Source: an uncultured Solirubrobacterales bacterium
Lineage (GTDB): Bacteria; Actinomycetota; Thermoleophilia; Solirubrobacterales; 70-9
Assembly: GCA_963714665.1 (NCBI GenBank)
Contig: CAVQPE010000008.1
Location: forward strand, 776,848-840,847
Length of the DNA stretch: 64,000 nucleotides
Direction of reading: 5' to 3'
Position 1 is the first letter of the stretch. Every line of letters starts with the position of its first letter. The notes under the pieces are model-generated. The model made no database searches. It was not told the DNA's origin and saw nothing but the letters and a program-made list of their open reading frames with translations. Both the position numbers and the translations under genes were made by a program. Shown here piece after piece: positions 4,766-49,872 of this stretch.

Positions 4766-4780
4766 AATTGCAGCGTCTCC

Positions 4781-23114: not shown

Positions 23115-23142
23115 TGTTGGCCGCTGCGTACTACTGCATTTC

Positions 23143-24993: not shown

Positions 24994-24999
24994 ACGCCC

Positions 25000-25041
25000 G
25001 CCGACGCCGACGTCAGGCACCTGACGTATCGGCCCGTCGGC
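25000..25041. repeat. Degenerate copy of the 49-bp palindrome family
   Basis: The right arm TGACGTATCGGCCCGTCGGC is exact. The left arm GCCGACGCCGACGTCAGGCACC has decayed. Confidence 0.7.
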
Positions 25042-25064
25042 CGGGACGATACGGTTCGCGCGCT

Positions 25065-26103
25065 ATGCGCGCCGTCACCTTTCAGGCTCCCGGGGAGGTT
25101 CGGGTCGAGGAGAAGCCCGATCCCGAGATGGGCGCCGCCGACGATGCGCTGGTCCGGGTCGAGGCGAGTGGGATCTGCGGCTCCGACCTCCACATCTACC
25201 ACGGCCGGGTGCCGGTCGAGCAGGGCTTCACGATCGGCCACGAGTTCGTCGGCACGGTGCTCGCCGCCGGCGACGACGTCGAGCGGGTCGCGGTCGGCGA
25301 CCGGGTGCTCGGCTGCTTCCACACCGCCTGCGCGACCTGCGCCGCCTGCCTGCGCGGCGACTACCACCGCTGCGAGCGACGGCCAGCACCTTCGGCCACG
25401 GCTCCCACCTCGGCGACCTGCAGGGCGCCCAGGCCGAGCAGCTGCTGGTGCCGCGCGCCAACCTGACCCTGCGCGGGTCCCGGAGGGGATGTCGGACGAG
25501 GTCGGCGCTCTTCGCCGGCGACGTGATGGGGACCGGCTACCACGCCGTCGCCCACGCGGGGATGCGCTCGGGCGACACCGTCGCCGTGCTCGGCCTCGGC
25601 CCGGTCGGCCTCTGCGCGGTGCAGGCGGCGCTCGCCGGCGGCGCGACCCAGGTCTTCGCGATCGACTCGGTCGCGGCAGCGGCTGGAGATGGCGGCCGCG
25701 TTCGGGGCGACGCCGATCCACCTGACCGAGGAGGACCCGAAGCGGGCGGTGCGCGGCGGCGACCGAGGGGCGCGGGGTCGACGTCGTCGTCGACGCGGTC
25801 GGCGACCCGGCGCCGCTGGCGATGGCGATCAGCCTCGCCCGCGACGCCGGCACGGTCTCCGGGATCGGCGCCTACGCCGGCAAGGGCGAGGTGCCGCTCG
25901 GCCTGGCCTGGCTCAAGGGGCTGACCCTGCGCCTCGGCCTCGCCAACGTGATCGCCCACGTCGACCGCGTGCTGGCCCTGATCGAGGCCGGCAAGCTCGA
26001 CCCGGCGCCCCTCGTCACCCACCACATGAAGCTCGACGAAGCGGCCGAGGCCTACGAGATCTACGACCAGCGCGAAGCGCTGAAGATCGTCCTCACTCCC
26101 TAG
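25065..26103 (+). pseudogene. Zinc-dependent alcohol dehydrogenase family oxidoreductase, about 3 frame breaks
   Basis: VRVEASGICGSDLHIYHGRVPVEQGFTIGHEFVGTV, then TVAVLGLGPVGLCAVQAALAGGATQVFAID, then GVDVVVDAVGDPAPLAMAISLARDAGTVSGIGAY...KIVLTP lie in successive frames. Confidence 0.75.
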
Positions 26104-30176: not shown

Positions 30177-30205
30177 ACTGTGCAGTTTGCCTGTGCTTTT
30201 TCGGT

Positions 30206-30643
30206 ATGATCCACGCTGTGCCGACCCGGGTGGACAGCGGACCGATCGCCGGTGAGCTGAGCGTTGCGCTGGGTCACCTGATCCGCCGCCTGCGCGCCCA
30301 GCACGGCTTCTCGCTGTCGCAGGGCTCGGTCCTGGGGCGACTGGATCGCGAAGGCCCGCAGTGCACGAGCGCCCTTGCGACGGCCGAGCGCGTGCGGCCG
30401 CAATCGATGGGCCAGACGGTCGCCGAGCTCGAGGAGCAGGGCTTGGTCGAGCGGCGCGCCGATCCCGACGACGGCCGCCGCACGCTGATCGAGCTGACCG
30501 AGGGGGGTCGGGTCGAGCTGCAGGAGGTCCGCGGCCGGCGAGAGGGGTGGCTGGCCGAGGCGATCGCGGAGGGCTTCAGCGACGAGGAGCGCCTAGTGCT
30601 CGAGCAGGCCGTGCCGCTGCTCGGGCGGCTGGCGGAGCTTTGA
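30206..30643 (+). CDS. MarR-family transcriptional regulator
   Basis: LSQGSVLGRLDREGPQCTSALATAERVRPQSMGQTVAELEEQGLVERRADPDDGRRTLIELTEGG is a winged-helix MarR core. It is divergent from one MFS gene and overlaps the start of the next. Confidence 0.85.
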   Translation: MIHAVPTRVDSGPIAGELSVALGHLIRRLRAQHGFSLSQGSVLGRLDREGPQCTSALATAERVRPQSMGQTVAELEEQGLVERRADPDDGRRTLIELTEGGRVELQEVRGRREGWLAEAIAEGFSDEERLVLEQAVPLLGRLAEL

Positions 30644-32115
30644 CGGCGACTGCGCAGACGAGCGACCGGCGGCGCTGGATCGCCCTGGTCGTGCTCTGCC
30701 TCGGGCAGCTGATGATCGTCCTCGACGCGACCATCGTCAATGTCGCCCTGCCCTCGATCCAGGGGGACTTGGGCTTCACCCAGGCGAGCCTGACCTGGGT
30801 CGTCAACGCCTACCTGATCGCCTTCGGCAGCTTCCTGCTGCTGGCCGGCCGGCTCGGTGACCTGATCGGCCGCAAGAAGGTCTTCATCGGCGGCCTGGCC
30901 CTGTTCACCACCGCCTCGGTGCTCTGCGGCCTCGCCGACGACCAGACGCTGCTGATCGCGGCGCGTTTCGTCCAGGGCATGGGCGGCGCGGTCGCCTCCT
31001 CGGTGATCATCGCGATCATCGTCACCGAGTTCCGCGAGCGGAGCGAGCAGGCGCGGGCGATGGGCGTCTTCACCTTCGTCGCGTCGGCGGGTGGCTCGAT
31101 CGGCTTGCTCGCGGGTGGCGTCCTCACTCACCTGCTGAGCTGGCACTGGATCTTCTTCATCAACGTGCCGATCGGGATAGCGGCGATCGGGCTCGGACTG
31201 GCCCTGATCGAGGAGAGCGAGGGGGCGGGGCTGCGCCAGGGGGTAGACGTCCTCGGCGCGGCGCTGATCACCTTCGCCGGGATGCTCCTCGTCTACGCGA
31301 TCGTGCAGACCGAGGGGTATGGCTGGGGCTCGCCGCGGACGCTCGTTCCCGGGGTGGCGTCGCTGGCGATGATCGGCGGCTTCTTCGCCTACGAGGCCCG
31401 GATCGAGAACCCGATCATGCCGCTGCGGGTGTTCGCGCTGCGCAGCCTGATGGCGGCGAACGCGGTTCGCGGCCTCCTCGTCGTGGGGATGTTCTCGTCG
31501 TTCTTCCTCGGGGCTCTCTACCTGGAGCACGTGCTCGGCTTCAGCCCGATCCGGACCGGGCTCGCCTTCCTGCCGATGACACTCGCGATCGGGGCGCTCT
31601 CGGTAGGGGTGACGCCCCGGCTGCTGACCCGCTTCGGGCCGAAGCGGACCCTGGTCCCGGGGCTGGGGTTGGCCTTCGCCGGCCTGCTCCTCTTCGCCCG
31701 CGTGCCGGTCGAAGGCAACTACTGGCGCGACCTCTTCCCGGCCTTCCTCTTGCTCGGACTCGGCGCCGGGACTTCGTTCATGCCGCTGATCACGTTGGCG
31801 ATGTCGGAGGTGCCGAAGGCCGATGCCGGCCTCGGCTCCGGCCTGATCAACACCGCTCAGCAGATGGCCGCCGCGATCGGCGTCGCCGCCCTCGGCACCG
31901 TCGCCGCCAGCCGCACAGCCGACCTTCTCGCGGCCGGTGACTCCCAGCCTGCGGCCCTCACCGCCGGCTTCCACCTCTCCTTTGCCATCGCGACCGCCTG
32001 CGTGGCCATCGCGATCGTCCTCGCCGTCGTCCTGCTGCAGTCACCGGCCCGGGAGCCCGGGCCGGAGGAGGAGCCGGGTGTCCGCGAGGAGCTGCTGGCG
32101 GACGAGATGGTCTGA
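30640..32115 (+). CDS. MFS transporter, DHA2 (EmrB/QacA) family
   Basis: The TTG start overlaps the MarR stop. WIALVVLCLGQLMIVLDATIVNVALPSIQGDLGF, AGRLGDLIGRKKVFIGG and ARFVQGMGGA are present. Confidence 0.85.
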   Translation: MTATAQTSDRRRWIALVVLCLGQLMIVLDATIVNVALPSIQGDLGFTQASLTWVVNAYLIAFGSFLLLAGRLGDLIGRKKVFIGGLALFTTASVLCGLADDQTLLIAARFVQGMGGAVASSVIIAIIVTEFRERSEQARAMGVFTFVASAGGSIGLLAGGVLTHLLSWHWIFFINVPIGIAAIGLGLALIEESEGAGLRQGVDVLGAALITFAGMLLVYAIVQTEGYGWGSPRTLVPGVASLAMIGGFFAYEARIENPIMPLRVFALRSLMAANAVRGLLVVGMFSSFFLGALYLEHVLGFSPIRTGLAFLPMTLAIGALSVGVTPRLLTRFGPKRTLVPGLGLAFAGLLLFARVPVEGNYWRDLFPAFLLLGLGAGTSFMPLITLAMSEVPKADAGLGSGLINTAQQMAAAIGVAALGTVAASRTADLLAAGDSQPAALTAGFHLSFAIATACVAIAIVLAVVLLQSPAREPGPEEEPGVREELLADEMV

Positions 32116-32126
32116 GCCGTATCTGT

Positions 32127-32176
32127 CAGACGATTTTGCGTCTAGACGATTAGACGTTTAATCGTCTAATCGTCTA
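32127..32176. promoter_or_regulatory. AT-rich array of six AGACG(A/T)TT half-sites in both orientations (candidate operator) just upstream of the Fic gene
   Basis: CAGACGATTTTGCGTCTAGACGATTAGACGTTTAATCGTCTAATCGTCTA contains the 10-bp palindrome CGTCTAGACG. It also has 14-bp inverted arms TAGACGATTAGACG (32143-32156) and CGTCTAATCGTCTA (32163-32176). Confidence 0.5.
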
Positions 32177-34913: not shown

Positions 34914-35507
34914 GTGGACCAAATGACCCTCGACAGCGAAGCGGTTTCCGCCTCGCTTCACACCCCGGCTGGCTTCGCGACGATCTTCGATCGCCACTTC
35001 GACGCCGTCCATGCCTACCTGCAGCGTCGGGTCGGCCCGGACCTGGCCGACGAGCTGTCGGCGCAGACCTTCCTCGTCGCCTTCGACAAGCGGGGCGGCT
35101 ACGACCTGGCCCAGCCCGATGCCCGGCCCTGGCTCTTCGGCATTGCCACCCACCTCTTGCGTCGCCACCATCGCGACGAGGTGCGCCAGTTTCGCGCCTA
35201 CGCGCGGAGCGCCGAGGACCCCGTCCTTGACGCCTTCGACGGCGTAGAGGCCAGGCTCGACGCGACGGAGATGCGCCGCGAGCTCGTCGACGCCTTGGCC
35301 GACGTCCCGGCCGAGGAGCTCGACGCGCTTCTGCTTTACGCCTGGGCCGAGCTCTCCTATCCAGAGATCGCCCGCGCTCTGGACGTCCCGACCGGGACCG
35401 TCCGCTCGCGGCTCTCACGTGCCCGCGGGCGGATTCGCGCCGCGCTGGGCGCCGACCAGCCCCAGGCCCTTGGCCAACCCGTCCCCGAGGAGGGAGGATC
35501 GCGATGA
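34914..35507 (+). CDS. ECF (group 4) RNA polymerase sigma factor
   Basis: FATIFDRHFDAVHAYLQRRVGPDLADELSAQTF is region 2. LDALLLYAWAELSYPEIARALDVPTGTVRSRLSRARGRI is region 4. Confidence 0.85.
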   Translation: MDQMTLDSEAVSASLHTPAGFATIFDRHFDAVHAYLQRRVGPDLADELSAQTFLVAFDKRGGYDLAQPDARPWLFGIATHLLRRHHRDEVRQFRAYARSAEDPVLDAFDGVEARLDATEMRRELVDALADVPAEELDALLLYAWAELSYPEIARALDVPTGTVRSRLSRARGRIRAALGADQPQALGQPVPEEGGSR

Positions 35508-36853
35508 ACGAGATCGACTTGCTGCGAGAGCTTCGTGCGGAGCTGCCCGGACCCAGGGCCGAGAGCCGGGCCTCGGCCCGGGGCGCCCTGGTCGCGCGGA
35601 TCGAGGATTCCCAGCGCCCGCGGCCGCGGGCGACCGTCCCCGCCTGGCGGCGGTCCAGGCTTCGTCTCGTCGCCGTGCTGGCGGCGGCGGCGGCCCTGCT
35701 CGTCGCCCTGCCGACCTTGATCCTCGGTGGCGATGGCAAGGTGCAGCCCGCCCTCGGCCAGGTGCTTCGCGCGGCGGCGGCGACGGCGGCCACCCAGCCT
35801 GCCGAACCGCCTCCGGGCCCGGGCCAGTACTTCTACACCCGCTCCAGGGAAGCCTATTTGACGACCTCTGTCGGCCCCAACCCGCGCTGCGCGACGAATC
35901 CATGCGACCCCGAACACCCCTGGGAAGCGACCCGGGCGTGGAGCGTGCTCGTCCCCAGGATTCGCCAGACCTGGATCGCCGCCAACGGCGCCGGCCGGGC
36001 GCGGGCGGTCGCCGCCAAGCCGGAATTCCTCACGGCTGGACAGCGCCGGGCATGGAAGGCCGCCGGATCGCCCCACCTCGGCTCCGGCGGGGTCGAAGAC
36101 TTCGCCCTCTCCGGCCAGCCCTTCCTCGACACCTCGAACCTGCCGACCGAGCCCAAGGCGCTGCGCCGGCTGATCGAAGCCCGCAAGATCCCGCGCGTCG
36201 ACGGGCCTCCCGGCGAAGCCGAGACCTTCACCCTCGTCGGCGACATGCTCCGCAACACCTACCTGCCACCGGCCTTCCGGGCCGCCCTCTACCGGGTGGT
36301 GGCGGAACTGCCCAAGGTCGAGCTGCGCGGGGAGGTGAAGGACCCGGTCGGCCGCACCGGCATCGGGGTCGCCTACACCAAAGGCAGCACCACCCACGAG
36401 TTGATCTTCGACCCCGAGACCTCGGCCCTGCTCGGCGAGCGCGAAGTAGCGGCCCGCCGGATCCCCGCTCTCCAGGTCCCGGCCGGGACCGAAATCGGCT
36501 CGGTCACCTACCTCGAATCAAAGGTGGTCGACTCGCTGGGCAAGGGAGCGCCCCCCGGCGCCGGCCACCTGCGCCAGAGCATCGGCTGCTACGAAAAACC
36601 CTCCCTGCACGCCAACACCGCGATCCTCCACGGCCCCGACCCGATCGCCACCTGCACCAAGCTCTGGCGCGAAGGCGCAATGGGCACGACCCTCGAGCGC
36701 CTGGAACGCGAAGGCAAGATCCCCAAACGCCCAGACAAGACCCCCAACCTAGTCGCCTGCGAAGGCGACTATCCGGCGGTTACCTATGTATTCCCCGGGG
36801 ACGGCCCGTCCGTCTGCAACCGGCTCGGCATGCGGCCCAGTGCGGCCGAATAG
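35504..36853 (+). CDS. Membrane-anchored partner of the ECF sigma (CU044_5270-like putative anti-sigma/sensor protein)
   Basis: The start overlaps the sigma stop (ATGA). The N-terminus MNEIDLLRELRAELPGP, a single TM LRLVAVLAAAAALLVALPTLIL and a large extracytoplasmic domain are present. Confidence 0.6.
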   Translation: MNEIDLLRELRAELPGPRAESRASARGALVARIEDSQRPRPRATVPAWRRSRLRLVAVLAAAAALLVALPTLILGGDGKVQPALGQVLRAAAATAATQPAEPPPGPGQYFYTRSREAYLTTSVGPNPRCATNPCDPEHPWEATRAWSVLVPRIRQTWIAANGAGRARAVAAKPEFLTAGQRRAWKAAGSPHLGSGGVEDFALSGQPFLDTSNLPTEPKALRRLIEARKIPRVDGPPGEAETFTLVGDMLRNTYLPPAFRAALYRVVAELPKVELRGEVKDPVGRTGIGVAYTKGSTTHELIFDPETSALLGEREVAARRIPALQVPAGTEIGSVTYLESKVVDSLGKGAPPGAGHLRQSIGCYEKPSLHANTAILHGPDPIATCTKLWREGAMGTTLERLEREGKIPKRPDKTPNLVACEGDYPAVTYVFPGDGPSVCNRLGMRPSAAE

Positions 36854-37067
36854 CCGGACCCGATCATCGTCACTGGCGCTGCCTCCAGCTACTGTCTTTT
36901 CATTCTTTTCCAGGTTGATCAACTTCCGATAAAGCTTGCAAGATCGATAAGTTCAGGGGCAACTCCAGACGGCGCCCTACATCACCGATATGCCGTGTCG
37001 ATTCTGCAAAATCCAGTCGGGCTGTGGCCGCCGATACGGGCACGGGAGGAATGAGAATTACTTTGCG

Positions 37068-37472
37068 CTACTCGTATTGCTCCATCTCGGCAACGATGTC
37101 GTCACGACCTCGATGGCTCGCTTGACTAATCGCTCGATAAGCCAAATAACAGCCCACCCCAGCAAGCGCGAATGGCAACGAGCTTTGATCGTGATGATCA
37201 ACAGCTACGCCGCCAAGGGCACCAGTTAGCGTCAGCCAGACAGCACCAGCATCGGCCCTTGCTTTGATCCGATACTTCAAGCGCCGCCATGCTTGCCATG
37301 GAACCAAGACGGCATCGTCAGATGTCTGGACAACTCTAAAAGGTGGCCGTGGAAATTCGGAAACCTCTGCGGCAATGCCATTGTACTCGGATTTACCGCG
37401 CATGCCTGACCCTGGCAGGTATTGCTCAGTACTGCGCCGCTGCGCCTGTTTTCTTGATCCTGATCTTGCCAT
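37068..37472 (-). CDS. Hypothetical small protein with C-terminal hydrophobic segments (island ORF)
   Basis: This 134-aa ORF contains AVWLTLTGALGGVAV and LPFALAGVGCYLAY. No family was recognised. Confidence 0.4.
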   Translation of the reverse strand: MARSGSRKQAQRRSTEQYLPGSGMRGKSEYNGIAAEVSEFPRPPFRVVQTSDDAVLVPWQAWRRLKYRIKARADAGAVWLTLTGALGGVAVDHHDQSSLPFALAGVGCYLAYRAISQASHRGRDDIVAEMEQYE

Positions 37473-37529
37473 TTGCGTCCCCTAAGCGTCATATGCCTTA
37501 TCGGCTAAGACGCACCGGAAGCAAATGGC

Positions 37530-37931
37530 TCAGGTCACGCTTAGCCCCATCATCGGAAGCGGATTTCGGTTGTTTCGCTGCAAGAGATCGTCATCGACAT
37601 GCAGCTTCGTCCTATTTCCGCTCTGCCGGATCAGAGCCCTTCTCTTAGGTACTGCGAAGGCTCTAATCCACCACGCAAATGTCGCAATTTGCGGAACGGC
37701 AATGAGAAGGAATGGCCATGCGAATGGCCCATCGCCAGCTCCAATGAAAGCAATGACCGAAAGTGCTGCCACCCAAGAGAGGCTGAACAATTCTAGGAGA
37801 GACGGCCATGATCTAGGACTATTGGCATTCGACTCTGAACCGCATTCGAAAAAGGAGTCAGAAAACCTTTCCGGCTCAGCTAGTCGTTCCGGATGAACAG
37901 GAAGCCAATGGAGAATTTCCCCCACAGGCAC
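37530..37931 (-). CDS. Hypothetical two-TM membrane protein (island ORF)
   Basis: This 133-aa ORF contains LFSLSWVAALSVIAFIGAG and WPFLLIAVPQIATFAWWIRAF. Confidence 0.4.
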   Translation of the reverse strand: MPVGEILHWLPVHPERLAEPERFSDSFFECGSESNANSPRSWPSLLELFSLSWVAALSVIAFIGAGDGPFAWPFLLIAVPQIATFAWWIRAFAVPKRRALIRQSGNRTKLHVDDDLLQRNNRNPLPMMGLSVT

Positions 37932-38215
37932 AATTTAGGGGACCAGAGCTTCATCGTCAAGCATTGAATCGAGTCGGTTGTCGATGCCCTCCGTCAATGA
38001 CTAAAGTCCAAACGGATGCCGTAGTTCAAAGCGGGCGAGATACCCTGCACCAAACGTGCTTTCAGGAATCCAGCCGGGGCCGCGGGTAACTCGCGCTCGC
38101 TTCCGCTGCGCGTCTTGCCCACTACGTCGCGAGCGCGCGGGGCGCGTAGCGCCCGGTCAGACTCGCAGGCAAGGCCAGCCCGGCCGTAGACGGTGCCTTG
38201 CGCCACCACCGCCGC

Positions 38216-39211
38216 TTACAGAGCTTCCCCGGCGGAATCCAGGCGGGCCTTGGTCTTGTCTCGGGCTTCGGCGATCGTGTCGGAGGTCAGGAGCAGGTCG
38301 ATCGCGACCCAGACAGGCTGGGAAGGCCAGAGCTTTCCCATTGGTACCTCTATGGAGGGTTCGATGGCCGGTCCCAAGCTGAAAACCCAATGGCGCTCCC
38401 CGGACCAGTCAACCTTCCCTTTAAGCGGCTCGAAACCCGCGTAGTTGTCGTTGGCGATGCGGTAGTCCTCCACATGACGTATCTGCTGGAGTTTGCCGTC
38501 GAACCGGAAGCCAAGGTAGTTCGGGGGCTCCTTTGGCCAGCCTCCGCGACCTCCGCCAACGGGACAGAAGTAGGTGTGGTGGTTAACAACGACATCGCGG
38601 AAGCTGATGCCGGTGTCCCCGATCTCCTTGCCCAGGCTGACGACGTAGACGAGATTAGATAGAACGTTCTGCATGGTCATCAAGCCTCTCAGGTAGCGAG
38701 ACAGATCGCGCAGGAGTCGTTTCTCGCGGTGGCGCCGGGACTTGCTGGCGGCCTCCGTGGCAAGAGCCTCGACCTGTCGCCAAGACCGATACACGACGGG
38801 AACGCCCTGAACCCGTTTGGGCAGCCGCCCGGAGACAAACTCGGGCGGGGCCTCTGCGAAGACAGCCAACATCGTTGCTGGCGGCTTCGTTCTAGTCGCG
38901 TACTTCGCCAGTTGGTCGTCGCCGGGAAGGCCATAGCCGCGCTTGGCCTCAATAACGAGGCGAAACTTTCCTCCATTCCCGGCGATCTCGATATCGGTAA
39001 AGCCAGCGCCGGGGACGCCCTCTTGGAGGCCGACGATTTCCACCTGGGCCTTGCCAGGGGAAGCGTGAAGGTCGCGCAGCAACGCCTGAGAGAATTGTTC
39101 ACTCTCTGCCAGCGCCCAGCCGACCGAGTAGGTGATGTCGTTCTCCTTGTCGCCGAGCAGGTCGAAGACGGTGCCTACCGGCCGTCCGTACAGCTTTAGC
39201 TCGACTGGCAT
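38216..39211 (-). CDS. Putative PD-(D/E)xK-fold nuclease with uncharacterised C-terminal domain (island ORF)
   Basis: GFTDIEIAGNGGKFRLVIEAKRGYG gives a D-x13-E-A-K arrangement on predicted beta strands. The 331-aa ORF is intact. The C-terminal roughly 170 aa (HHTYFCPVGGGRGGWPKEPPNYLGFRFDGKLQQIRHVEDY...) is unassigned. Confidence 0.5.
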   Translation of the reverse strand: MPVELKLYGRPVGTVFDLLGDKENDITYSVGWALAESEQFSQALLRDLHASPGKAQVEIVGLQEGVPGAGFTDIEIAGNGGKFRLVIEAKRGYGLPGDDQLAKYATRTKPPATMLAVFAEAPPEFVSGRLPKRVQGVPVVYRSWRQVEALATEAASKSRRHREKRLLRDLSRYLRGLMTMQNVLSNLVYVVSLGKEIGDTGISFRDVVVNHHTYFCPVGGGRGGWPKEPPNYLGFRFDGKLQQIRHVEDYRIANDNYAGFEPLKGKVDWSGERHWVFSLGPAIEPSIEVPMGKLWPSQPVWVAIDLLLTSDTIAEARDKTKARLDSAGEAL

Positions 39212-39240
39212 CGCAAAGAGCGGTGGCTTGCTGCGAGCAT

Positions 39241-39498
39241 CTACCCGTCAGGTGGAAACTCGCCAAGCAGGGTGCGCCTCACACCGTAGCCGTTTGGCGT
39301 ATATCGCCAATGGTCCGGCTTGAATTCCTCGGCATAGCCTTTCACCTGCAAGCTCGCCAGGGCCGCTGCCACTTCGTCGGGCTCTAGCGGTGGTTCGTGG
39401 GTCACCTCGATACAGATTCGGTCGAAACTTTCAAGCTGCGACTCCCTGATGAGGCACCGGAAGACTCGGAACTCGGGTCCGTGAAGGGGCTCGGCCAT
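39241..39498 (-). CDS. Small winged-helix-like protein upstream of the nuclease candidate (island ORF)
   Basis: In this 85-aa ORF, EVAAALASLQVKGYAEEFKPDHWRYTPNGYGV resembles a recognition helix plus wing. It lies 29 bp upstream of 38216-39211 on the same strand. Confidence 0.35.
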   Translation of the reverse strand: MAEPLHGPEFRVFRCLIRESQLESFDRICIEVTHEPPLEPDEVAAALASLQVKGYAEEFKPDHWRYTPNGYGVRRTLLGEFPPDG

Positions 39499-39582
39499 TT
39501 CCCCAAGGTATCGGGCTGCTCGGCTACGTCAATCAGCCATCACGACAGGATGGGTGTCCGCCGCCGGGGCCAGCATTGCAGC

Positions 39583-40101
39583 ATGGACATCGCCGCTGTT
39601 GTCGCAGTTGCCCTCGCAGCAGTATCAGCCATCGCAGCCGCTGTGTCCGCAATAGCGACGAGACAGTCGGTGGATCGGTCGCACCGGCCTTTCGTGTGGC
39701 CCGCCATTTCGCACGGCACGGACGGCGAGGCGAGAATTTTGCGGGTCCGACTTCACAATGACGGGGCCGGAACCGCATACGAAGTTCGGTGGTCCTTCGG
39801 AAGCCTGGCGGAAACACAGGAGGGCGGGTTTGTCGAGGACAGCAAGGGCGCAGCGGGGCAGGCGTCGATGGCGATCCGGGCAATCAGAGCAGGAGAGAGC
39901 GTCCCCCCGGAGGAAAGTGGCTGGCTGGACAAAGAGGTCCAGCTACCGCCAGACGACATCGGCTGGATTCTTGTCCGGTGGAGCGATGCCGCAGGCGTTC
40001 GATGGGAGGTTTCAGATCAGGGACCGGCGACTTCGCGCGGAAGGCCACGCAGGCTTCGGACGTGGAAGTGGCAGTTCTGGCGAGCCCCCGCAGACTGGTA
40101 G
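39583..40101 (+). CDS. N-terminally TM-anchored hypothetical protein, beta-rich ectodomain (island ORF)
   Basis: MDIAAVVAVALAAVSAIAAAVSAIA is the anchor, followed by ILRVRLHNDGAGTAYEVRWSF...WILVRWSDAAGVRWEV. Confidence 0.4.
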   Translation: MDIAAVVAVALAAVSAIAAAVSAIATRQSVDRSHRPFVWPAISHGTDGEARILRVRLHNDGAGTAYEVRWSFGSLAETQEGGFVEDSKGAAGQASMAIRAIRAGESVPPEESGWLDKEVQLPPDDIGWILVRWSDAAGVRWEVSDQGPATSRGRPRRLRTWKWQFWRAPADW

Positions 40102-40174
40102 TACTACCCGGCAGGGCCTATTCAGCCTGACGACGCCTGAATGCGACCAGCGCGCTCCGCCGCAATCAGGGCTA

Positions 40175-40711
40175 TTAGCTGACCGCGAACGTCTGATGAC
40201 GTAGGCCCAGCACCGTTGCCGCGTAAATCTCGAAGACCGCAGCGAGGCGGTTGTCGGTGATCTCGACCACCTGGAAATCCCAACGGGCGATCCGTTCGCA
40301 TTGACGGCGAAACTCAGCCATGAACTCGGGGTCGGCGCAATTCTCCTTCCGGGTTCCGGCGAGGGGCAGCTTCTTCCCGTGGAAGCTCCGCACGGTTCGC
40401 GCGTAGGCGTAGGTGCCCTCGTTGTGGCGAGGTCGGACATGACCCCGAAGGCGGGTGCGGAAGTTCGAGAACTTCTTGCCCGCGCGCTTTGAGCGCTCCG
40501 TCAGGCCCACCCGGCCGACGTAGCGCGGCCTTCCCCTCTCCGAGAACAGGTACACGCCGTAAGTCGCTGGCGGAGGGTCGCGATCCTCGCCCAAGCCGTA
40601 GATCGGTGAGTCCAGAAGACGGGTCAGAAGATCGGGGAGCTGCTTCGTGATCTCTGCATCCCATTGACGCTCCCTTGCGATGATCTTTAGTGTTTTCCGC
40701 TTGGTCGCCAT
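40175..40711 (-). CDS. GIY-YIG-like nuclease-domain protein (island ORF)
   Basis: YGVYLFSERGRPRYVGRVG gives GVY, 9 residues, then YVG. It is followed by RTRLRGH and NEGTYAY, consistent with the GIY-YIG core order. This is a pattern-level call only. Confidence 0.4.
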   Translation of the reverse strand: MATKRKTLKIIARERQWDAEITKQLPDLLTRLLDSPIYGLGEDRDPPPATYGVYLFSERGRPRYVGRVGLTERSKRAGKKFSNFRTRLRGHVRPRHNEGTYAYARTVRSFHGKKLPLAGTRKENCADPEFMAEFRRQCERIARWDFQVVEITDNRLAAVFEIYAATVLGLRHQTFAVS

Positions 40712-40787
40712 ATTCGCCTGCGCTCATCCGCGTGCAAGACGCTACAAGCTTTGGTCAGACGGTTGGTTTGCTGGGTAGAATCGGTTT

Positions 40788-40991
40788 ATGTCCGCTGTCC
40801 CAAGTTACCTGGAGTGCAAAGCATGTGGAGGGATTGGCTACGTCGCGATACGTGATGAAACAGTGGACCCTGCGGAATATCGCCCCGCCAAATGGGTTCC
40901 CTGCCATGACTGTAAGGGCACGGGCAACAGGACCAAGCAGGGGCCAATACGCGAGGTACCTCCATACTCGCCCGACAGTTTTGTCAAGTAG
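40788..40991 (+). CDS. DnaJ-type zinc-finger miniprotein (two CxxCxGxG motifs) (island ORF)
   Basis: The 67-aa ORF has CKACGGIG and CHDCKGTG. TAGAAT at 40776-40781 lies 6 nt before the ATG, which suggests a leaderless transcript. Confidence 0.5.
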   Translation: MSAVPSYLECKACGGIGYVAIRDETVDPAEYRPAKWVPCHDCKGTGNRTKQGPIREVPPYSPDSFVK

Positions 40992-41071
40992 ACACGACGG
41001 CGAGTATTCCGCTGGCGACAAGAGCCGACAGCCGACTCTTCCCTGATACGACTCGAACTGATCCGCATCCA

Positions 41072-42229
41072 ATGCGGGCAATCGAGAGCGAGTACGGCTT
41101 CTTTCAGCGGGTAGATGATCCGGCTTGCGGTCGAATCCGAGCCGTGCTCAATGAATGGTTCGATCGGTTTCTCTCGATGCAAAAGGCCGAAGCTGTGTCG
41201 GACTTGCGGGGCCGATTTCGGGCTAAGGAAGATGGCCAATTCAAGTCCGCGTTCTGGGAGCTGTATTTGCATGAGATGTTCGTGAGGCTCGGATTTGATA
41301 TCTCCGTTCACCCGCTATCTGAACGCGGGAAGCGCCCCGATTTCGTTCTTCGCAGAGAGGATCAGCGCTTCTATCTGGAGGCAGTCATGTCGACCCCCGG
41401 ATTCTCCGGTCGCAACGAGCCGCGTAACGTCCAAATGGTGATCGAGCACGTCAACGAGGCGTATCACCCGGACTTCCTTCTTCGGCTGCACTATGTCATC
41501 GCGGGCGACGAGACCCCACGAAGGGCTACCGTTCGCAAGGAGGTCTCCGATTGGCTTTACGGGCTCGCCTGGGAGGACATCTGGAAGGACGACCTGGCGA
41601 GCAGCGTCCATCCCGAGACCGCGATTGAGGTTGACGGGGGATGGAAGATCGGCTTGACCGCCTTGCCTCTGCCCCCCGAGAACCGAGGCCGGGAGAAGGG
41701 ACCGATGATCTTTGCCTACCAGGGATTCGTGGGCAATGCGGATGGACTCGGTCTAGCAATTCTTCCTGGCCTCCACGAAAAGGCCAACAAGTACGGTGAC
41801 CTCGATGCGCCGCATGTCATAGCTCTGTGGGTCATGGATGCGATGGCAAGCGAGGACACAGCGGCGCTTGCGCTATTCGGGGGCTGGTTCTCGACGGAGG
41901 AGGGAACGCATCGAACGGGGCTGAATCTCAGAAAGGAGAGGACGAAATCGCTATGGAGTCCGAGCGCGAAGCACCGGGAGCGAGCGAGCGCCGTCCTTGC
42001 AACCAACAGCTTTGAATTTGGCTATCCAGCCATTGCTCGGACGCTTCCTCGACTCTGGCCAAACCCGTGGGCCAACCGACCTCTCTCGACAGGTTTGCCG
42101 TTCGCACGATCACTGGTATCCGGGGACGAAGAAACCGCCGAGAACGTCGCCGCGACGATCACGGCGAGCGAGCTTTTCGGCCTTCCCACTGACTGGCCTG
42201 GGCGGGCGTTTCAGGGTGAATCAGAGTAG
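41072..42229 (+). CDS. Hypothetical 385-aa protein with a possible degenerate PD-ExK-like N-terminal motif (island ORF)
   Basis: GKRPDFVLRREDQRFYLEAVMS shows PD, about 12 residues, then E-A-V with no Lys. The rest is unassigned. Confidence 0.35.
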   Translation: MRAIESEYGFFQRVDDPACGRIRAVLNEWFDRFLSMQKAEAVSDLRGRFRAKEDGQFKSAFWELYLHEMFVRLGFDISVHPLSERGKRPDFVLRREDQRFYLEAVMSTPGFSGRNEPRNVQMVIEHVNEAYHPDFLLRLHYVIAGDETPRRATVRKEVSDWLYGLAWEDIWKDDLASSVHPETAIEVDGGWKIGLTALPLPPENRGREKGPMIFAYQGFVGNADGLGLAILPGLHEKANKYGDLDAPHVIALWVMDAMASEDTAALALFGGWFSTEEGTHRTGLNLRKERTKSLWSPSAKHRERASAVLATNSFEFGYPAIARTLPRLWPNPWANRPLSTGLPFARSLVSGDEETAENVAATITASELFGLPTDWPGRAFQGESE

Positions 42230-42259
42230 TCGCGCCGAGGCTTGAACTCTCTGGGCGGG

Positions 42260-42943
42260 CTACTGGCTCGGTTTTGCTTCCACGATCTGGATGTTCCAAT
42301 GCTGCTCGCCGAAGAACTGAGCAATGAAGCGCAAAAACTTCCGATGGCTCCGGGGGTCGGACCCGCGATAGGGAATCGTGACGTTGTAGACGATTCCCAT
42401 ATGGATTTCCTGCGAGCCCCCGACCTGGGGCGTGAGCTTGATCTGGCCCTCCGCGCCAGCAGCCAGGGAAGGGGGGACGAGTATGCCCATTCCGCCTCGG
42501 CCTTCACCCTCGCCGCACGTCGCTTCGGCGCGATCCACGTCGAGAACGGCGACGCCGTTCCCGGCATTTATCACTCCAAGAAAGGTCGGCGTTACTTCAA
42601 CGTGCTGAGGCTCGCGCATGATCGGCTCAGAGGGTCCGATTCGCGCCGAACTCATACTTGCTGGAATCAAGTTCGGGGTGACTTGCAGGCTCAAAGCCTT
42701 CTGCGCGACCTCGGCTTGTTCGGAGATCGCGCTCATCTGGACGCGGTTGAGTTCCAGTTGTTCGACTGCGAGCCGCAGGGTCGCCGTGTTCTGCTGCTGG
42801 CTCTCCTGATTCTGATCCTCGTTCAGTCTGAGCAGGCGGTAATTGAGGAGGAGCGAAACCACGGCGACGACGGCTAGGGCGAGCGTGCCAATGGCCGCTG
42901 CTTCGCTCGCGGGAAGACCAAACAGGGCTAGCGCCAAGTTCAC
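42260..42943 (-). CDS. N-terminally TM-anchored protein with coiled-coil and beta-rich domain (island ORF)
   Basis: AAAIGTLALAVVAVVSLLL is the anchor and NEDQNQESQQQNTATLRLAVEQLELNRVQMSAISEQAEVAQKAL is coil-like. These are followed by FLGVINAGNGVAVLDV.... Confidence 0.4.
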   Translation of the reverse strand: MNLALALFGLPASEAAAIGTLALAVVAVVSLLLNYRLLRLNEDQNQESQQQNTATLRLAVEQLELNRVQMSAISEQAEVAQKALSLQVTPNLIPASMSSARIGPSEPIMREPQHVEVTPTFLGVINAGNGVAVLDVDRAEATCGEGEGRGGMGILVPPSLAAGAEGQIKLTPQVGGSQEIHMGIVYNVTIPYRGSDPRSHRKFLRFIAQFFGEQHWNIQIVEAKPSQ

Positions 42944-42984
42944 GGTGGATTAAGCGGGGCGCTGGACGAGCCCAGTCCGCCTAC

Positions 42985-43269
42985 CTACGAATTCAAGAAT
43001 TCGAGCAGCCACCGGTCGTTGCAGAGGAGTTCGCCCTCGAACGCACCACCGCCAGAAAGGGAGACGACCAAGAGGCGGTCATCATCGTCCATCAATTCCC
43101 AGAGGTGGTTGCGAATGGCCTCGGCGTCGCCGTCGCTCTTGAGCACCCAGACCGACTTCTCAACCTCTTTGGCGCTCGGGTACTCCTCAATACGCTCGAT
43201 CAACCGCCGGTAGCTCGCCGAGGTCTCATTGGGTCCGTCGAGGTCGTAAGCGACGAGGTAGTTGCTCAT
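42985..43269 (-). CDS. Small ferredoxin-fold-like protein reminiscent of Cas2/VapD (island ORF)
   Basis: The 94-aa ORF shows the pattern NYLVAYDL - YRRLIERIEEY - VEKSVWVLKS - AEAIRNHLWELM - DRLLVVSL, which suggests beta-alpha-beta-beta-alpha-beta. No CRISPR array or cas1 is present in the window. Confidence 0.25.
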   Translation of the reverse strand: MSNYLVAYDLDGPNETSASYRRLIERIEEYPSAKEVEKSVWVLKSDGDAEAIRNHLWELMDDDDRLLVVSLSGGGAFEGELLCNDRWLLEFLNS

Positions 43270-43533
43270 TCCGAGAAAGAGATTACACCGGACCTAATAT
43301 CATACGATTTCTTCCCGTCCAACACGGAGGTGGGAGGGCCGTGCCCCGAGATCGAACGGGACTGTTTGTGGGCGAACGACAGACGCGGTATAGGTGACCG
43401 GCCTCCGCCGGTTCGAGCCGTAAACTTCCAATGACAAGCGAGTCGTAGGGTCTTGCGATTCGAGCTGTAGAGCCAAGTTCAGGACGGGGTTAGAACCACC
43501 TCCGATTTCTTGGCTCTACAAAGGGAAATCCGA

Positions 43534-43605
43534 TGGGCGCGGCTGGGTTCGAACCAGCGACCTCTCGCGTGTGAGGCGAGCGCTCTCCCGCTGAGCTACG
43601 CGCCC
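43534..43605 (-). tRNA. tRNA-Val (anticodon CAC)
   Basis: The reverse complement reads GGGCGCG-TA-GCTC-AGCGGGA-GAGC-G-CTCGC-CTCACAC-GCGAG-AGGTC-GCTGG-TTCGAAC-CCAGC-CGCGCCC-A. A 12-bp hairpin (TGTAGAGCCAAG / CTTGGCTCTACA, about 43468-43520) follows its 3' end. Confidence 0.9.
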
Positions 43606-43695
43606 GGGAGAGGGTCAATCATAGGGCGCGCGAGCGGTTCCAGATCGAGTCCAGATGGGGTCGACGGTCCGGGAGAGCGCCTACCATCCGTCTCC

Positions 43696-44130
43696 ATGGC
43701 CGAGGCGTTGACCACACGTTCTGACTGGCTTGTCGCCCATCCTCCTGCTCGGGAGCGGCTCTCGCAGACCCTTGCGGCGGTGGCTGGGCGCGTTCGCGCA
43801 GGCGAGGACTTCCGCCATGTCGTGCGCGAGTTCCTTGACGAGTTTGCGCTGCGAGGCGACGATCGTTCACGGGCCGACGCAATCGCGGAGCGCCCGGAGT
43901 CGACCGGCGATCCTCGTCACGATGCCTACCTCGGCGCCCTGGGTGAGCACCTGGCGGCGGTCCACGGTTTGAGCAGGCCCGCGTGGTCGGTTGAGCCGGG
44001 GCGCTTCCTGGACCGCTTCTGGTTCGTCAGCGAGGTGCCAGGTTTTCGCGCGGTGGCGATCGCCCAAGCCCCGGCCGCGTTCCGCCGCCGCGGGGTCTTC
44101 ATCCCGGAGCGTTCGCTGCATCGCGTCTGA
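43696..44130 (+). CDS. Hypothetical protein (possible partner of the degraded nucleotidyltransferase-like gene downstream)
   Basis: This is an intact 144-aa ORF from MAEALTTRSDWLVAHPPARERL.... No family was recognised. Confidence 0.4.
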   Translation: MAEALTTRSDWLVAHPPARERLSQTLAAVAGRVRAGEDFRHVVREFLDEFALRGDDRSRADAIAERPESTGDPRHDAYLGALGEHLAAVHGLSRPAWSVEPGRFLDRFWFVSEVPGFRAVAIAQAPAAFRRRGVFIPERSLHRV

Positions 44131-44132
44131 GC

Positions 44133-44285
44133 ATGGATCGGAGCGAGATCATCGCTGCGCTCACCGCGCTGGCTGGCGAGCTCGAGGGGCGGGGCGTCGT
44201 TGCCTTGCTGCTTCGCCAGAGACGTTGCTCGCGCTGAAGGTCCTCGCCCACCGCGTCGGTGAGGACGATCGCCGGTCGGATCAGG
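44133..44285 (+). pseudogene. Remnant of a nucleotidyltransferase-like (DUF6036/AbiEii-like) gene with an internal deletion
   Basis: MDRSEIIAALTALAGELEGRGV is a typical N-terminus. It runs directly, in a shifted frame, into SPETLLALKVLAHRVGEDD, a typical C-terminal helix. The central catalytic part is missing. Confidence 0.35.
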
Positions 44286-45495
44286 CCGGTGCCGGGGCCT
44301 CGATGGCGGGTGGCGGCTCCGTGCCTCCTTCGGCCTCGGAGCTTTTGCGCAGGGCCAGGCCTACGAAGGGGAAGACGAGGGTCGAGAGCATGGCGGCGCC
44401 GACCAGGCCCGCTGCGGTCGAGGTCTTCATGTGGCCGGTCTCGGTGGCGATCGTGGTGATAGCCACGACGAGAGGGAGCTCGGTCGCGGAGTAGAAGGCG
44501 AGGGCGGCTCGGTCGCGGGCGCTGAGGACGCCTCGGTAGAGCAGCATCGCCGGGGTGCCGCGGACGATCAGGAAGAGGAAGAAGAACATCACCAGCTTGA
44601 GCAGGGCGGTGACCGAGCCGAGCGCGGCGAGATCGAACTCGATGCCGCTGGTGACGAAGAAGAAGGGGACGAAGAAGCCGAAGCCGACGGCCGTCAGCTT
44701 CGACTCGAAGACTTTCAGCTCGTGCCCTTTCAGGGCCATGCGTACGATCATTCCCGCCACGAAGCCGCCGATCAGGACGTCGAGGCCGAGCTTGCCGGCG
44801 AGCAGGACGAGGCCGAAGACGAGAACTACTGTGATCCGTACCGCGAGCTGGCTGCTCGACTCGAAGGTCCGCTCCAGCGCCGGCCAGCCGCGCCAGGCGA
44901 GTCGCACCGAGACCAGCGCCATCACCAGCGCCAGCACGATGAAGGCGACCAGGATCGCTGCCTCGTGAAAGGGGTTGGCGGTGGAGAGGACGAGGGTGAC
45001 CAGGAGGATCGGGCCGAACTCGCCGACCCCGCCCGCGGCCAGCAGGTAGGTGCCGAATTTGGTCTTCAGCTCGCCGTTGTCGCGCAGGATCGGGATCAGG
45101 GTGCCGATCGCCGTCGTCGCCATCGCCGAGCCGGTGTAGAGGAAGGAGACGATGATGCCGGCCGCGGCGAGGACGCCACCGAGCCCGTAGGCCAGGGCCA
45201 CCGAGAGCAGCCAGCCCCAGGCGCCGAGCCTCAGTGGCGTTCCCTTGATCCGCTCGAAGTCGATCTCGTAGCCGGCGAAGAAGAAGAGCATCCCGAGGCC
45301 GAGGTTGGAGAAGAAGGTGATGAAGTTGTCGGTCTTGGCGATGTCGAAGACTTCGGGGCCGACGAGGATCCCCAGCAGCAGCTCGACGACGACCACGGGC
45401 GGGGCGAAGCGCTTCGGCACAATGGCAACCGTGACCGCGGCCAGCGCCGCGACCACGACGATGACGAAGAACGAATCTGTGTCGACGTGGATCAC
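44281..45495 (-). CDS. Cation:proton antiporter (CPA/Kef-type sodium-hydrogen exchanger family)
   Basis: PPVVVVELLLGILVGPEVFDI, LGLGMLFFFAGYEIDF and about 11 TM segments are present. The 404-aa ORF is intact. Confidence 0.8.
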   Translation of the reverse strand: MIHVDTDSFFVIVVVAALAAVTVAIVPKRFAPPVVVVELLLGILVGPEVFDIAKTDNFITFFSNLGLGMLFFFAGYEIDFERIKGTPLRLGAWGWLLSVALAYGLGGVLAAAGIIVSFLYTGSAMATTAIGTLIPILRDNGELKTKFGTYLLAAGGVGEFGPILLVTLVLSTANPFHEAAILVAFIVLALVMALVSVRLAWRGWPALERTFESSSQLAVRITVVLVFGLVLLAGKLGLDVLIGGFVAGMIVRMALKGHELKVFESKLTAVGFGFFVPFFFVTSGIEFDLAALGSVTALLKLVMFFFLFLIVRGTPAMLLYRGVLSARDRAALAFYSATELPLVVAITTIATETGHMKTSTAAGLVGAAMLSTLVFPFVGLALRKSSEAEGGTEPPPAIEAPAPA

Positions 45496-48988: not shown

Positions 48989-49086
48989 ATCGGCGCGACT
49001 GACTTTATGCCTCCATGTGGAAGGGGAAAGTCAGTCACGCCCGGGGGACTTGGAGGGGCGACCGTGGGTGTTGGGAGACTGGCGGC

Positions 49087-49872
49087 GTGCTGGACGAGCG
49101 CTGGATCAGGTCGCTGCATGTGGAGACATTGCGCGAGGAGGAACTGCACGCCGAGCGAGAGGCGCACGTGCTCTTCCAGGCCTCGACGATCGGGGCGCTG
49201 CTGGAGGGCGCCTACGACGGCGACCTCTCCTTCGCCGAGCTGGCCGAGCACGGCGACCTCGGGCTGGGGACGCTGAACGGCCTCGACGGCGAGATGATCG
49301 GGCTCGACGGGCGCTTCTACCGGGCCGACGTGGACGGCAACGTGAGCGAGGTCAACGCGACCGGGCGAACGCCGTTCGCGGTCGTGACCAGGTTCGAGCC
49401 GACTATCGACGTGGCCCGAGATGGGCCGTTCGACCACGACGGCCTGCTCGCGTGGCTGGACGAGCTGCTCCCCGCCGATGCGGCTTCCTGTGCGGTCCGG
49501 ATCGACGGGCGCTTCGACTTGGTCCGGGCTCGCTCGGTGCCCCGTCAGCACCCGCCCTATCGGCCGCTGACGGAGGTGGTCGCGGAGCAGCACGTCTTCG
49601 AGCTGAACGACGTGAGCGGGACGATGGTCGGCTTCCGCTTCCCCGACTACGTCGAGGGAATCGAGGTCAGCGGCTACCACCTTCACTTCATCGGCAAGGA
49701 CCGGGTTCGGGGCGGTCACGTGCTCGGCTCCCGCGCCGCCGGGACGCTCCGAGCCCGCCTCGACCCGTCCAGCGATTTGCACGTCGAGCTGCCGCCGGGG
49801 GTCGAGCTGTCCGATCCGGGTGTCGCCGCCGCCACGCACGATGCCCTTGACCGTGTCGAGAAAGCCGGGTAG
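49087..49872 (+). CDS. budA: Alpha-acetolactate decarboxylase
   Basis: VLFQASTIGALLEGAYDGDLSFAELAEHGDLGLGTLNGLDGEMIGLDGRFY, PFAVVTRF, MVGFRFPDYVEGIEVSGYHLHFI and the HVLG region are present. A GTG start is assumed. Confidence 0.85.
   Translation: MLDERWIRSLHVETLREEELHAEREAHVLFQASTIGALLEGAYDGDLSFAELAEHGDLGLGTLNGLDGEMIGLDGRFYRADVDGNVSEVNATGRTPFAVVTRFEPTIDVARDGPFDHDGLLAWLDELLPADAASCAVRIDGRFDLVRARSVPRQHPPYRPLTEVVAEQHVFELNDVSGTMVGFRFPDYVEGIEVSGYHLHFIGKDRVRGGHVLGSRAAGTLRARLDPSSDLHVELPPGVELSDPGVAAATHDALDRVEKAG

Follow-up and report, generated by a model that had tools for sequence, protein, structure and literature searches.

Hotspots at tRNA genes that hold a mosaic of single-gene modules are a well-known island architecture. 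Two single-gene anti-phage proteins of E. coli, PD-T7-5 and PD-T7-1, were reported by Vassallo et al. 2022 (as summarised in PMC10952713); both have a predicted PD-(D/E)xK domain, and their mechanism is not known (PMC10952713). The combination of a reader from the PUA superfamily (SRA, EVE, YTH, ASCH) with a nuclease is the architecture of modification-dependent (Type IV) restriction enzymes (PMC6765204, PMC7897488, PMC11037411). The role of an ASCH reader in restriction is predicted, with no experimental demonstration in any restriction enzyme (PMC11037411). Here we analyse 64,000 nucleotides (nt) of contig CAVQPE010000008.1 from an uncultured soil actinobacterium of the Solirubrobacterales. 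We refer to this whole stretch as the window, and focus on a 6.7-kb island of low G+C content (GC) at positions 36854-43533, which abuts the 3′ end of a tRNA-Val(CAC) gene. Ten open reading frames (ORFs), i1-i10, lie inside and exist as the initial annotation, made from the letters of the DNA, had described them. We consider it likely that the island is an integrase-less mosaic remnant of at least one tyrosine-recombinase integrative element that inserted at the tRNA-Val(CAC) 3′ end and carried defence-type cargo.

The low-GC block and its borders

The island and its landmarks are the following (aa, amino acids).

36854..43533, no strand assigned, low-GC genomic island (composition; synteny breakpoints against the related locus L003 at ~36838 and 43530)
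43404..43533, minus strand, conserved element-side module directly 3′ of the tRNA (82-93% identical in other loci)
43534..43605, minus strand, tRNA-Val(CAC), the integration target, with the attB/attL core in its 3′ ~31-44 nt (ARAGORN; Rfam, 71 bits)
44281..45495, minus strand, cation/H+ antiporter of the right flank, which anchors the hotspot in the chromosome (conserved at 74-93% identity in 80 related genomes)
35504..36853, plus strand, 449-aa protein of the left flank, after a sigma-70 gene (CU044_5270 family according to one source; 93% identical in L003)

The GC of the island is 0.596, compared with 0.689 in the rest of the window, a difference of ~7 standard deviations (sd); windows of equal size outside the island have a mean of 0.689, an sd of 0.013 and a minimum of 0.659. 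At the left border the 200-nt GC falls from 0.69 to 0.52 over 36.5-36.9 kb, just past the stop codon at 36853 of the 449-aa protein (referred to here also as anti-sigma), where the island begins. At the right border it rises from 0.59 to 0.69 over 43.4-43.6 kb, at the 3′ end of the tRNA (43534). The tRNA-Val(CAC) is intact (71 bits in Rfam), and its 3′ end directly abuts the island, which on this side begins at 43533. The sharp drop at 36853 and the recovery at the tRNA 3′ end had both been noted in the initial annotation and hold, but its contrast of 50-58% with 70-78% was overstated, as the median GC of 60-nt lines is 60% inside the island and 70% outside. Codon usage, which that annotation had proposed to check together with windowed GC, points in the same direction: GC at third codon positions (GC3) is 0.69-0.81 in six island ORFs, 0.60 in i7 and 0.50-0.51 in i1 and i2, so that most ORFs lie under the native level of 0.85-0.92. 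Inside the island the GC is 0.53 at 36854-38000, 0.63 at 38001-40750, 0.56 at 40751-41500 and 0.60 at 41501-43533, and these sub-blocks were a first hint of a mosaic origin. A second, milder dip (0.63-0.64) was observed at window 57000-60000.

For comparison, 80 loci were fetched with the flanking antiporter, all from Solirubrobacterales/Thermoleophilia metagenome-assembled genomes (MAGs) at 74-93% protein identity; these and further loci are given L numbers. The antiporter is followed by tRNA-Val(CAC), as in the window, in 68 of the 80. The DNA 3′ of the tRNA ranges from no insert (native GC, 0.68-0.73) to more than 10 kb at GC 0.55-0.65, and it encodes no homolog of any of the ten island proteins in any of the 80 genomes. 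The closest relative in which both flanks are kept is L003, whose sigma factor and 449-aa protein are 93-95% identical. It aligns up to window position 36838 and again from 43530, and an unrelated 3.35-kb low-GC insert lies between. The borders are thus fixed while the insert differs, and the site is therefore a replacement hotspot. A comparison of the tRNA-Val locus in related genomes had been suggested beforehand, and its outcome (island proteins in 0/80, another insert at the same breakpoints in L003) joins the composition in supporting the earlier proposal of a horizontally acquired island at the tRNA-Val 3′ end. Across the lineage, the comparison indicates that the tRNA-Val(CAC) 3′ end is a recurrent integration and accretion hotspot in these Solirubrobacterales.

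Three further features of the surroundings vary among the relatives. Of the 80 relatives, L003 alone shares with the window the placement of the sigma-70 gene and the 449-aa CU044_5270-family protein (34914-36853). The ancestral neighbours on the right-hand side of the hotspot are found further left, and this pair may stem from an older insertion that has already ameliorated. Between tRNA-Val and the antiporter lies a spacer with an ORF (43638-44277), which L003, L081 and L001 lack and of which L002 and L010 have a diverged form; being on the 5′ side of the tRNA, it falls outside the island. A second variable region of the window, 3.7 kb at 28433-32127, is absent from L003, where its flanks are 18 bp apart.

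The ORFs of the island are listed below (TM, transmembrane; AF2, AlphaFold2).

37068..37472, minus strand, i1, 134-aa ORF, doubtful gene (GC3 0.50)
37530..37931, minus strand, i2, 133-aa ORF with one or two hydrophobic segments, doubtful gene (GC3 0.51; KD19 2.14)
38216..39211, minus strand, i3, 331 aa, predicted modification-dependent (Type IV-like) endonuclease (family invariants; AF2 and Foldseek)
39241..39498, minus strand, i4, 85 aa, 30 nt upstream of i3 (called gene in the collection; no significant family)
39397..40101, plus strand, i5, protein with a single N-terminal TM anchor (KD19 2.68; no family match)
40175..40711, minus strand, i6, 178 aa, unannotated family with GIY-YIG-like motif order (129 homologs, family invariants)
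40788..40991, plus strand, i7, 67-aa miniprotein with two CxxC motifs (CxxCxGxG type), upstream of i8 (Pfam DnaJ_CXXCXGXG, 2.6e-4)
41072..42229, plus strand, i8, 385 aa, predicted N-terminal PD-(D/E)xK core and C-terminal region of ~250 aa (PADLOC; AF2)
42260..42943, minus strand, i9, 227 aa, one N-terminal TM anchor (KD19 2.59 at residues 15-33; called gene on record)
42985..43269, minus strand, i10, 94 aa, solo Cas2-superfamily protein (phrog_1090, 8e-17; Pfam Cas2, 1.5e-3)

Parts of this series recur elsewhere. In L081, a locus from another sample, i6, i7, i8 and i9 are found at 92%, 66%, 88% and 90% aa identity (85% nt identity overall) and are joined directly to the module, tRNA-Val and the antiporter; in L081, i10 is missing and an 869-aa gene takes the place of i1-i5. 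L087 contains i6-i5-i4-i3 in window order at 86-93% identity. This sharing of blocks marks the island as a mosaic, and the internal GC sub-blocks agree. It is thus a composite of at least three blocks (i1-i2, i3-i6 and i6-i9), and i10 is an indel.

The same loci bear on a quite different explanation, namely that the block is an artefact of assembly (a chimeric join in a MAG) or that what was taken for an island is left over from a prophage. Two observations would suit an artefact: the source is evidently a MAG, as its proteins map exactly to a 1.09-Mb contig, and many single-base frame breaks were found in conserved genes of the window. However, L081 repeats i6-i9 with the module, tRNA-Val and antiporter, L087 repeats i6-i3, and L003 has the same two breakpoints; the right junction and the internal blocks are thus seen again in independent contigs of other samples, whereas the left junction is not. 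As to a prophage, a PHROGs search of the window detected no structural, packaging, terminase or lysis families, which confirms the earlier statement that no phage structural gene is present. The only matches were two families of unknown function (phrog_1090 and phrog_8571) and sub-threshold noise, and a prophage was rejected. We regard this explanation, in either form, as barely credible.

The frame breaks themselves comprise ~25 junction coordinates at which the ORF of a relative aligns to the window in two adjacent frames, an upper bound, as some represent one break seen via overlapping ORFs. Frameshift-like junctions lie at 22700-26100, 27805, 47235, 49040-49090, 51640, 53903 and 57925, in genes 80-95% identical to their orthologs, with up to three or four single-base junctions per gene. 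The break at 47235 is backed by six relatives; three breaks fall within 25065-26100, where the gene fragments are still 80-91% identical to relatives. Because multiple single-base shifts fall in otherwise well-conserved genes, the pattern suggests assembly indels and not pseudogenisation. The intactness of the island ORFs had been set against ~20 broken genes elsewhere; the facts are right, but with breaks that look like assembly indels the contrast carries little weight. Homopolymer-linked sequencing error found no support as the reason for the intact island ORFs, with the frameshift sites lying outside long homopolymers and a similar density of G/C runs inside and outside the island.

Traces of integration at the tRNA

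The module at 43404-43533 connects the window with 12 other loci. A stretch of ~75-130 nt recurs at 82-93% identity in L018 (two copies), L028, L081, L083 (two copies), L026 and L030; it is also kept at 82-93% in L064, L078, L031, L001 and L045, and in many carriers the inserts are otherwise unrelated. In the examined relatives without an insert, the module was missing. Its sequence includes a 10-bp inverted repeat (43468-43518), with the stem AGAGCCAAG...CTTGGCTCT and an internal GGTGGTTCTAACC core. RNAalifold returned the 10-bp stem with only two covarying pairs, i.e. almost no covariation support, and Rfam gave no match to the module; with so little covariation and no match, we do not claim it as an RNA. 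We interpret the module as the integrase-proximal att arm or leader of a family of tRNA-Val-specific integrative elements. Three functions are conceivable: that of an att arm, that of an integrase leader/operator, or that of a tRNA terminator.

In L026, L064 and L078, a gene for a 374-382-aa integrase starts ~50 nt past the shared part of the module. The protein is a tyrosine recombinase, as judged by the Pfam Phage_integrase match (2.6e-12) and the HxxR...Y motifs. L030 keeps a 107-aa deletion remnant of the same gene and L031 its start. We also observed that an RHS-repeat protein of ~1870-1890 aa is encoded downstream of tRNA-Val in L026 and L030, beside the intact and the deleted integrase, respectively.

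At least nine relatives, namely L002, L014, L018 (two copies), L021, L023, L037, L049, L051 and L080, have partial copies of the tRNA-Val 3′ end (attR-type; 27-31 nt, >=92% identical) at 0.7-9.4 kb downstream from the intact tRNA; L083 is a further case. Behind the first of its two partial copies, L018 has the module a second time, an arrangement that reads as the signature of tandem integration. The two tandem inserts of this locus (L018 11937-20991; 6.3 and 2.7 kb) carry a ThiF/E1-like protein and a DUF5122 beta-propeller. The tRNA-Val locus of a further relative is represented by the metagenome contig L083 (antiporter 76% identical, with an Na_H_Exchanger match). Here a different integrase of 447 aa abuts the tRNA, a DDE transposase is present, and two more partial tRNA-plus-module junctions lie 9.4 and 16.8 kb away.

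Several observations weigh against an integrative origin. The window itself is without integrase, attR or recombinase fragment, and the origin thus rests on comparison. Neither library scans nor tblastn queries with the integrases of L026 and L078 detected an integrase, whole or fragmentary, in the window, and a search allowing up to three mismatches, along with a general repeat search, found no second copy of the tRNA 3′ end there. The earlier statement that neither an integrase nor a flanking direct repeat is present was therefore correct. Moreover, the module subfamily nearest to the window (L018, L028, L081) is also without integrase, and the link to an integrase comes from a sister subfamily that shares ~75 nt of the module. 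The earlier conclusion that a standard integrative element does not explain the island is nevertheless not supported, as the sister loci show attR copies, tandem accretion and an integrase after the shared module. On these comparisons, we hold an origin as an integrative island to be very likely.

The arrival mechanism is seen in the sister loci, and for the window we infer it. The element integrase would recombine attP (which includes the last ~31-44 nt of the tRNA) with the chromosomal tRNA-Val. Such recombination would regenerate the tRNA, place element DNA directly 3′ of it and leave a partial copy (attR) at the far end. Newer elements would displace older ones outward, giving tandem arrays, and later deletions or replacements would strip integrases and attR sites and reshuffle the cargo. 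The window would then retain only the tRNA-proximal arm (43404-43533) followed by cargo, its integrase and attR having been lost, and its copy of the island is probably immobile. The cargo would consist of separable, mostly single-gene, nucleic-acid-targeting modules of the kind found in defence islands (i3, i8, i6 and i10, with small and membrane proteins).

Predicted nucleases and other cargo

The island genes had been described as orphans. They are better called unannotated, with 955 homologs for i3, 129 for i6, 133 for i8 and 338 representative clusters of homologs for i10. The expectation that several products are nuclease-like is supported by the predicted PD-(D/E)xK cores of i3 and i8 and the Cas2-like i10. 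Single-sequence PDB searches with i3, i6, i8 and i10 gave nothing useful.

Many homologs of i3 are 60-90% identical, and they come from soil, human-gut and fermentation metagenomes and a few viral contigs. The protein had no match in Pfam, NCBIfam, PADLOC or PDB sequences, and a PDB search with its profile gave nothing useful. In the family alignment, D73, E75 and A89 are invariant and E88 and K90 nearly invariant, which is an intact D...ExK signature. The predicted layout consists of an N-terminal PD-(D/E)xK domain (D73, E75, E88-A89-K90) and a C-terminal ASCH/PUA-like domain. Foldseek searches with the AF2 model (predicted local distance difference test, pLDDT, of 84) matched ASCH structures with probabilities of 0.92-1.0 and E = 3e-3 to 2e-2, the best being ZmASCH (probability 1.0, E = 3e-3), followed by TTHA0113, YTH and the McrB N-terminal domain. 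The other half of the model had local matches to R.BspD6I2 and the Cap4 nuclease (probability 0.47-0.63). A PUA-superfamily domain and a nuclease are thus found in one polypeptide in the predicted structure of i3. Taken together, the model suggests that i3 is likely a modification-dependent restriction enzyme, in which a nuclease is fused to an ASCH-like reader of modified bases. The gut-lineage homologs (40-43% identity; L106-L171, human-gut and fermentation contigs) share one highly conserved neighbourhood, in which inspection of motifs pointed to an ImmA/IrrE-like peptidase, an XRE-type regulator and a DNA methyltransferase-like gene; this neighbourhood is probably one prophage or integrative and conjugative element lineage.

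In PADLOC, i8 matched PD-T7-5 at 6.9e-12 (43 bits) and PD-T7-1 at 7e-6, and the alignment to PD-T7-5 covers only profile positions 17-110 of 346. Within the i8 family, the PD-T7-5 match is found in 68 of 69 members and the PD-T7-1 match in 53. Residues E63, E103 and K237 are invariant, and P89-D90 nearly so. The (D/E)xK triad has no lysine (E103-A-V); judging from its conservation, K237 may substitute for it. The AF2 model has a pLDDT of 92 and a predicted template modelling score (pTM) of 0.86. Fold searches against the PDB and a viral structure library gave weak local matches, nearly all to PD-(D/E)xK nucleases (E = 0.02-1) and in keeping with the conserved residues, with no full-length structural analogue in either and none for the C-terminal ~250 aa; the i8 profile against PDB sequences gave nothing useful. 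Full-length homologs on Acinetobacter, Pseudomonas and Mycolicibacterium plasmids match positions ~27-115 of PD-T7-5 only. A full-length link between i8 and PD-T7-5 via these plasmid homologs was rejected, as the same N-terminal core alone matches. The alignments indicate that i8 belongs to a distinct family sharing a predicted nuclease core with PD-T7-5.

The motif residues of i6 are G52-V-Y54 ... Y64-V-G66-R67 ... R87, H91, N124 and E161. Pfam GIY-YIG (PF01541) matched none of 55 family members at E <= 0.5. The top five matches of the i6 profile in the PDB were all the UvrC GIY-YIG domain aligned on the motif, but at E = 0.12. Membership in the GIY-YIG family is thus unsupported; the GIY-YIG-like label of the initial annotation has no profile-level support (0/55), while the motif order is compatible with it, and a GIY-YIG-type nuclease is possible.

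For i10, the suggestion of a Cas2/VapD-like small protein proved well founded. Pfam CRISPR_Cas2 (PF09827) matches 36 of 67 family members (best 5.9e-9), and Cas2 structures lead the list for the profile in the PDB (4es1 at 0.003 and 8d3l at 0.009); i10 itself is under the Pfam cut-off (19.1 vs 23.8 bits). In the family, Y8-D9-L10 is nearly invariant and lies on the N-terminal beta-strand, at the position of the Cas2 catalytic Asp. No cas1, other cas genes or CRISPR array were found in the 64-kb window.

Among the smaller ORFs, i9 is 90% identical in L081 and has no family match. i7 reaches 21.6 bits against Pfam DnaJ_CXXCXGXG (cut-off 32.7) and is found with both CxxC pairs conserved only in L081 (66%); a role as general partner of i8 homologs was rejected, as was the idea that i5 and i9 are paralogs. 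In L087, i5 is 86% identical from residue 53 on, and its N-terminal extension is out of frame there; the true start is probably M52 or M63 (39550 or 39583), which would give ~172-183 aa. i4 is conserved only in L087 (86%). Four TM-anchored proteins had been counted, of which i2, i5 and i9 are clear, but i1 is borderline only. No homologs of i1 and i2 were found in any fetched locus, their exact sequences are not on record, and i1 has no family match.

How far this cargo serves defence can be judged from the neighbours of its homologs. These sit in defence and mobile contexts (SIR2, CBASS, Thoeris-TIR, restriction-modification). In L082, an i8 homolog lies beside SIR2 (PADLOC, 3e-117), and the context, with TrwC, SSB and SNase, is conjugative. 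In L083, another is part of the tRNA-Val island, with SMODS, QueC/PTPS/radical-SAM, DUF4145, a transposase and an integrase. The i8 homolog on Acinetobacter baumannii pWM98-2 comes after genes for a CBASS cyclase, an AAA ATPase and DUF6602, with an integrase and a zeta toxin adjacent. Homologs of i6 were found beside two ThsB-TIR genes and an MmeI-type restriction-modification (R-M) system in L175, and beside Type I R-M and a serine recombinase in L177. The variable hotspot cargo of the relatives includes four integrases, several methyltransferases, PglX, PbeA/PbeC, MADS, PDC-S11 and HipA. We also note that the older element of the L083 tandem array (1891-6032) contains QueC, PTPS and radical-SAM-like genes and an SMODS nucleotidyltransferase, which suggests a 7-deazaguanine-type DNA modification module beside a CBASS-like gene.

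Other points count against reading the block as a defence island. The hotspot cargo in relatives also includes many ordinary genes (transporters, glycosyltransferases and sigma factors), and i1 and i2 may not be genes; they are doubtful because their GC3 is 0.50-0.51, they lie in the lowest-GC block, have no homologs in the fetched loci and are not on record as called genes. PADLOC finds no complete defence system, only a partial PD-T7-5/PD-T7-1 core in one protein, and guilt by association and fold prediction (Foldseek E of 3e-3 at best) support a defence role but do not prove it. The designation as a novel defence island, made in the initial annotation, is not upheld, given this partial core and the familiar kind of site, a tRNA hotspot with single-gene modules. 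On balance, we lean slightly towards an anti-phage role, or one against mobile genetic elements, for the cargo.

Instead of protecting the cell, the nuclease-like genes might serve the mobile elements, whether as homing or selfish endonucleases, as addiction modules or as inter-element weapons; the island would then be decaying cargo from which the cell gains nothing. Plasmids and integrative and conjugative elements do carry these genes, the homologs have addiction genes of the Cas2/VapD-like and zeta-toxin types nearby, and the loss of the integrase and attR fits decay. However, i3, i6, i8 and i9 are full-length and 88-93% identical in protein sequence to their closest homologs (L081, L087), and i3 is found at 60-90% identity across more than 80 clusters; such conservation therefore indicates purifying selection and not decay. 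With canonical defence systems as neighbours of the homologs in addition, we find a purely selfish or decaying cargo highly unlikely.

Alternatively, i3, i6 and i8, perhaps with the small and TM proteins, might form one coherent, undescribed multi-gene defence system; for example, a sensor-nuclease for modified bases could be coupled to accessory nucleases. Members of the three families repeatedly lie no more than 2 kb apart, in some four or five arrangements: i6-i5-i4-i3 in the window and L087, i6 then i3 in L086, i3 convergent with an i6-like gene in L093 and L099, and, in the L089 clade, an i8-like gene abutting i3 with an i6-like gene ~2 kb upstream on the opposite strand. Partner identity in these arrangements is as low as 25-45%. 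At >=69% identity to i3, an i6-family gene lies within 2 kb in 9 of 14 loci and an i8-family gene directly upstream in 6 of 14, whereas either partner is found in 0 of 44 more distant i3 loci. Several of the co-occurring loci are, moreover, duplicates or the same syntenic locus, and conserved partnership does not extend to i4, i5, i7, i9 or i10. Neither i3 nor i6 accompanies the i8 homologs of L082-L085 and of plasmids, and the i6 homologs of L173, L175 and L177 have neither i3 nor i8 beside them. We consider one coherent system unlikely, and favour separable single-gene modules that tend to travel together, because each of the i3, i6 and i8 families also occurs without the others. A broader proposal concerns the ~330-aa i3 family, which extends from soil actinobacteria to human-gut bacteria. 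It might represent a new, abundant class of ASCH-reader restriction enzymes and, in one actinobacterial clade, form with the i6 and i8 families a nuclease trio that acts as an undescribed multi-gene anti-phage system. We put this forward tentatively and hold it to be rather doubtful; if true, the i3 family would offer the first tested role for ASCH in restriction.

Comparison with described systems

The analysis places a lineage-wide hotspot in uncultured Solirubrobacterales at tRNA-Val(CAC), beside a conserved antiporter; to our knowledge, there are almost no genetics in Solirubrobacterales. As far as we checked, the hotspot in this lineage and its conserved tRNA-proximal module with the 10-bp inverted repeat are undescribed. 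An island that looks integrase-free can be explained by comparison, with no new mobility mechanism needed. Current concepts are unchanged, and members are added to known categories. The main residual interest lies in three sizeable unannotated families (i3, i8 and i6) that recur among known defence genes.

Gene by gene, the likeness to described systems is partial. As in Type IV enzymes, i3 is a single polypeptide with a predicted reader and nuclease and has no cognate methyltransferase adjacent; it differs in having no sequence match to any Pfam, PADLOC or PDB entry, and its structural E-values are modest. i8 resembles PD-T7-5 and PD-T7-1 in size (385 aa vs a 346-position profile), as a lone gene and in its mobile and defence contexts, but it aligns only over ~17-115 of the 346 positions of PD-T7-5, with its C-terminal part outside the model and the triad lysine replaced. 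The invariant residues of the i6 family follow the order of the GIY-YIG nucleases and its best PDB matches are UvrC, yet these matches are not significant. i10 shares with the Cas2/VapD ferredoxin-fold nucleases the family profile and the Y-D-L strand with its Asp; unlike Cas2, it is solo, with no cas1 or array in the window, and its family also occurs in phages (phrog_1090).

As a whole, the island compares best with tRNA-targeting integrative islands, from which the window copy differs in being without integrase and attR. It lies exactly at the 3′ end of an intact tRNA, with lower GC and atypical codon usage, and its sister loci have direct repeats of the tRNA 3′ end, tandem arrays and integrases. 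As in such islands and in defence hotspots, the cargo differs among close relatives, and includes R-M, BREX, CBASS-like, SIR2 and toxin-antitoxin genes.

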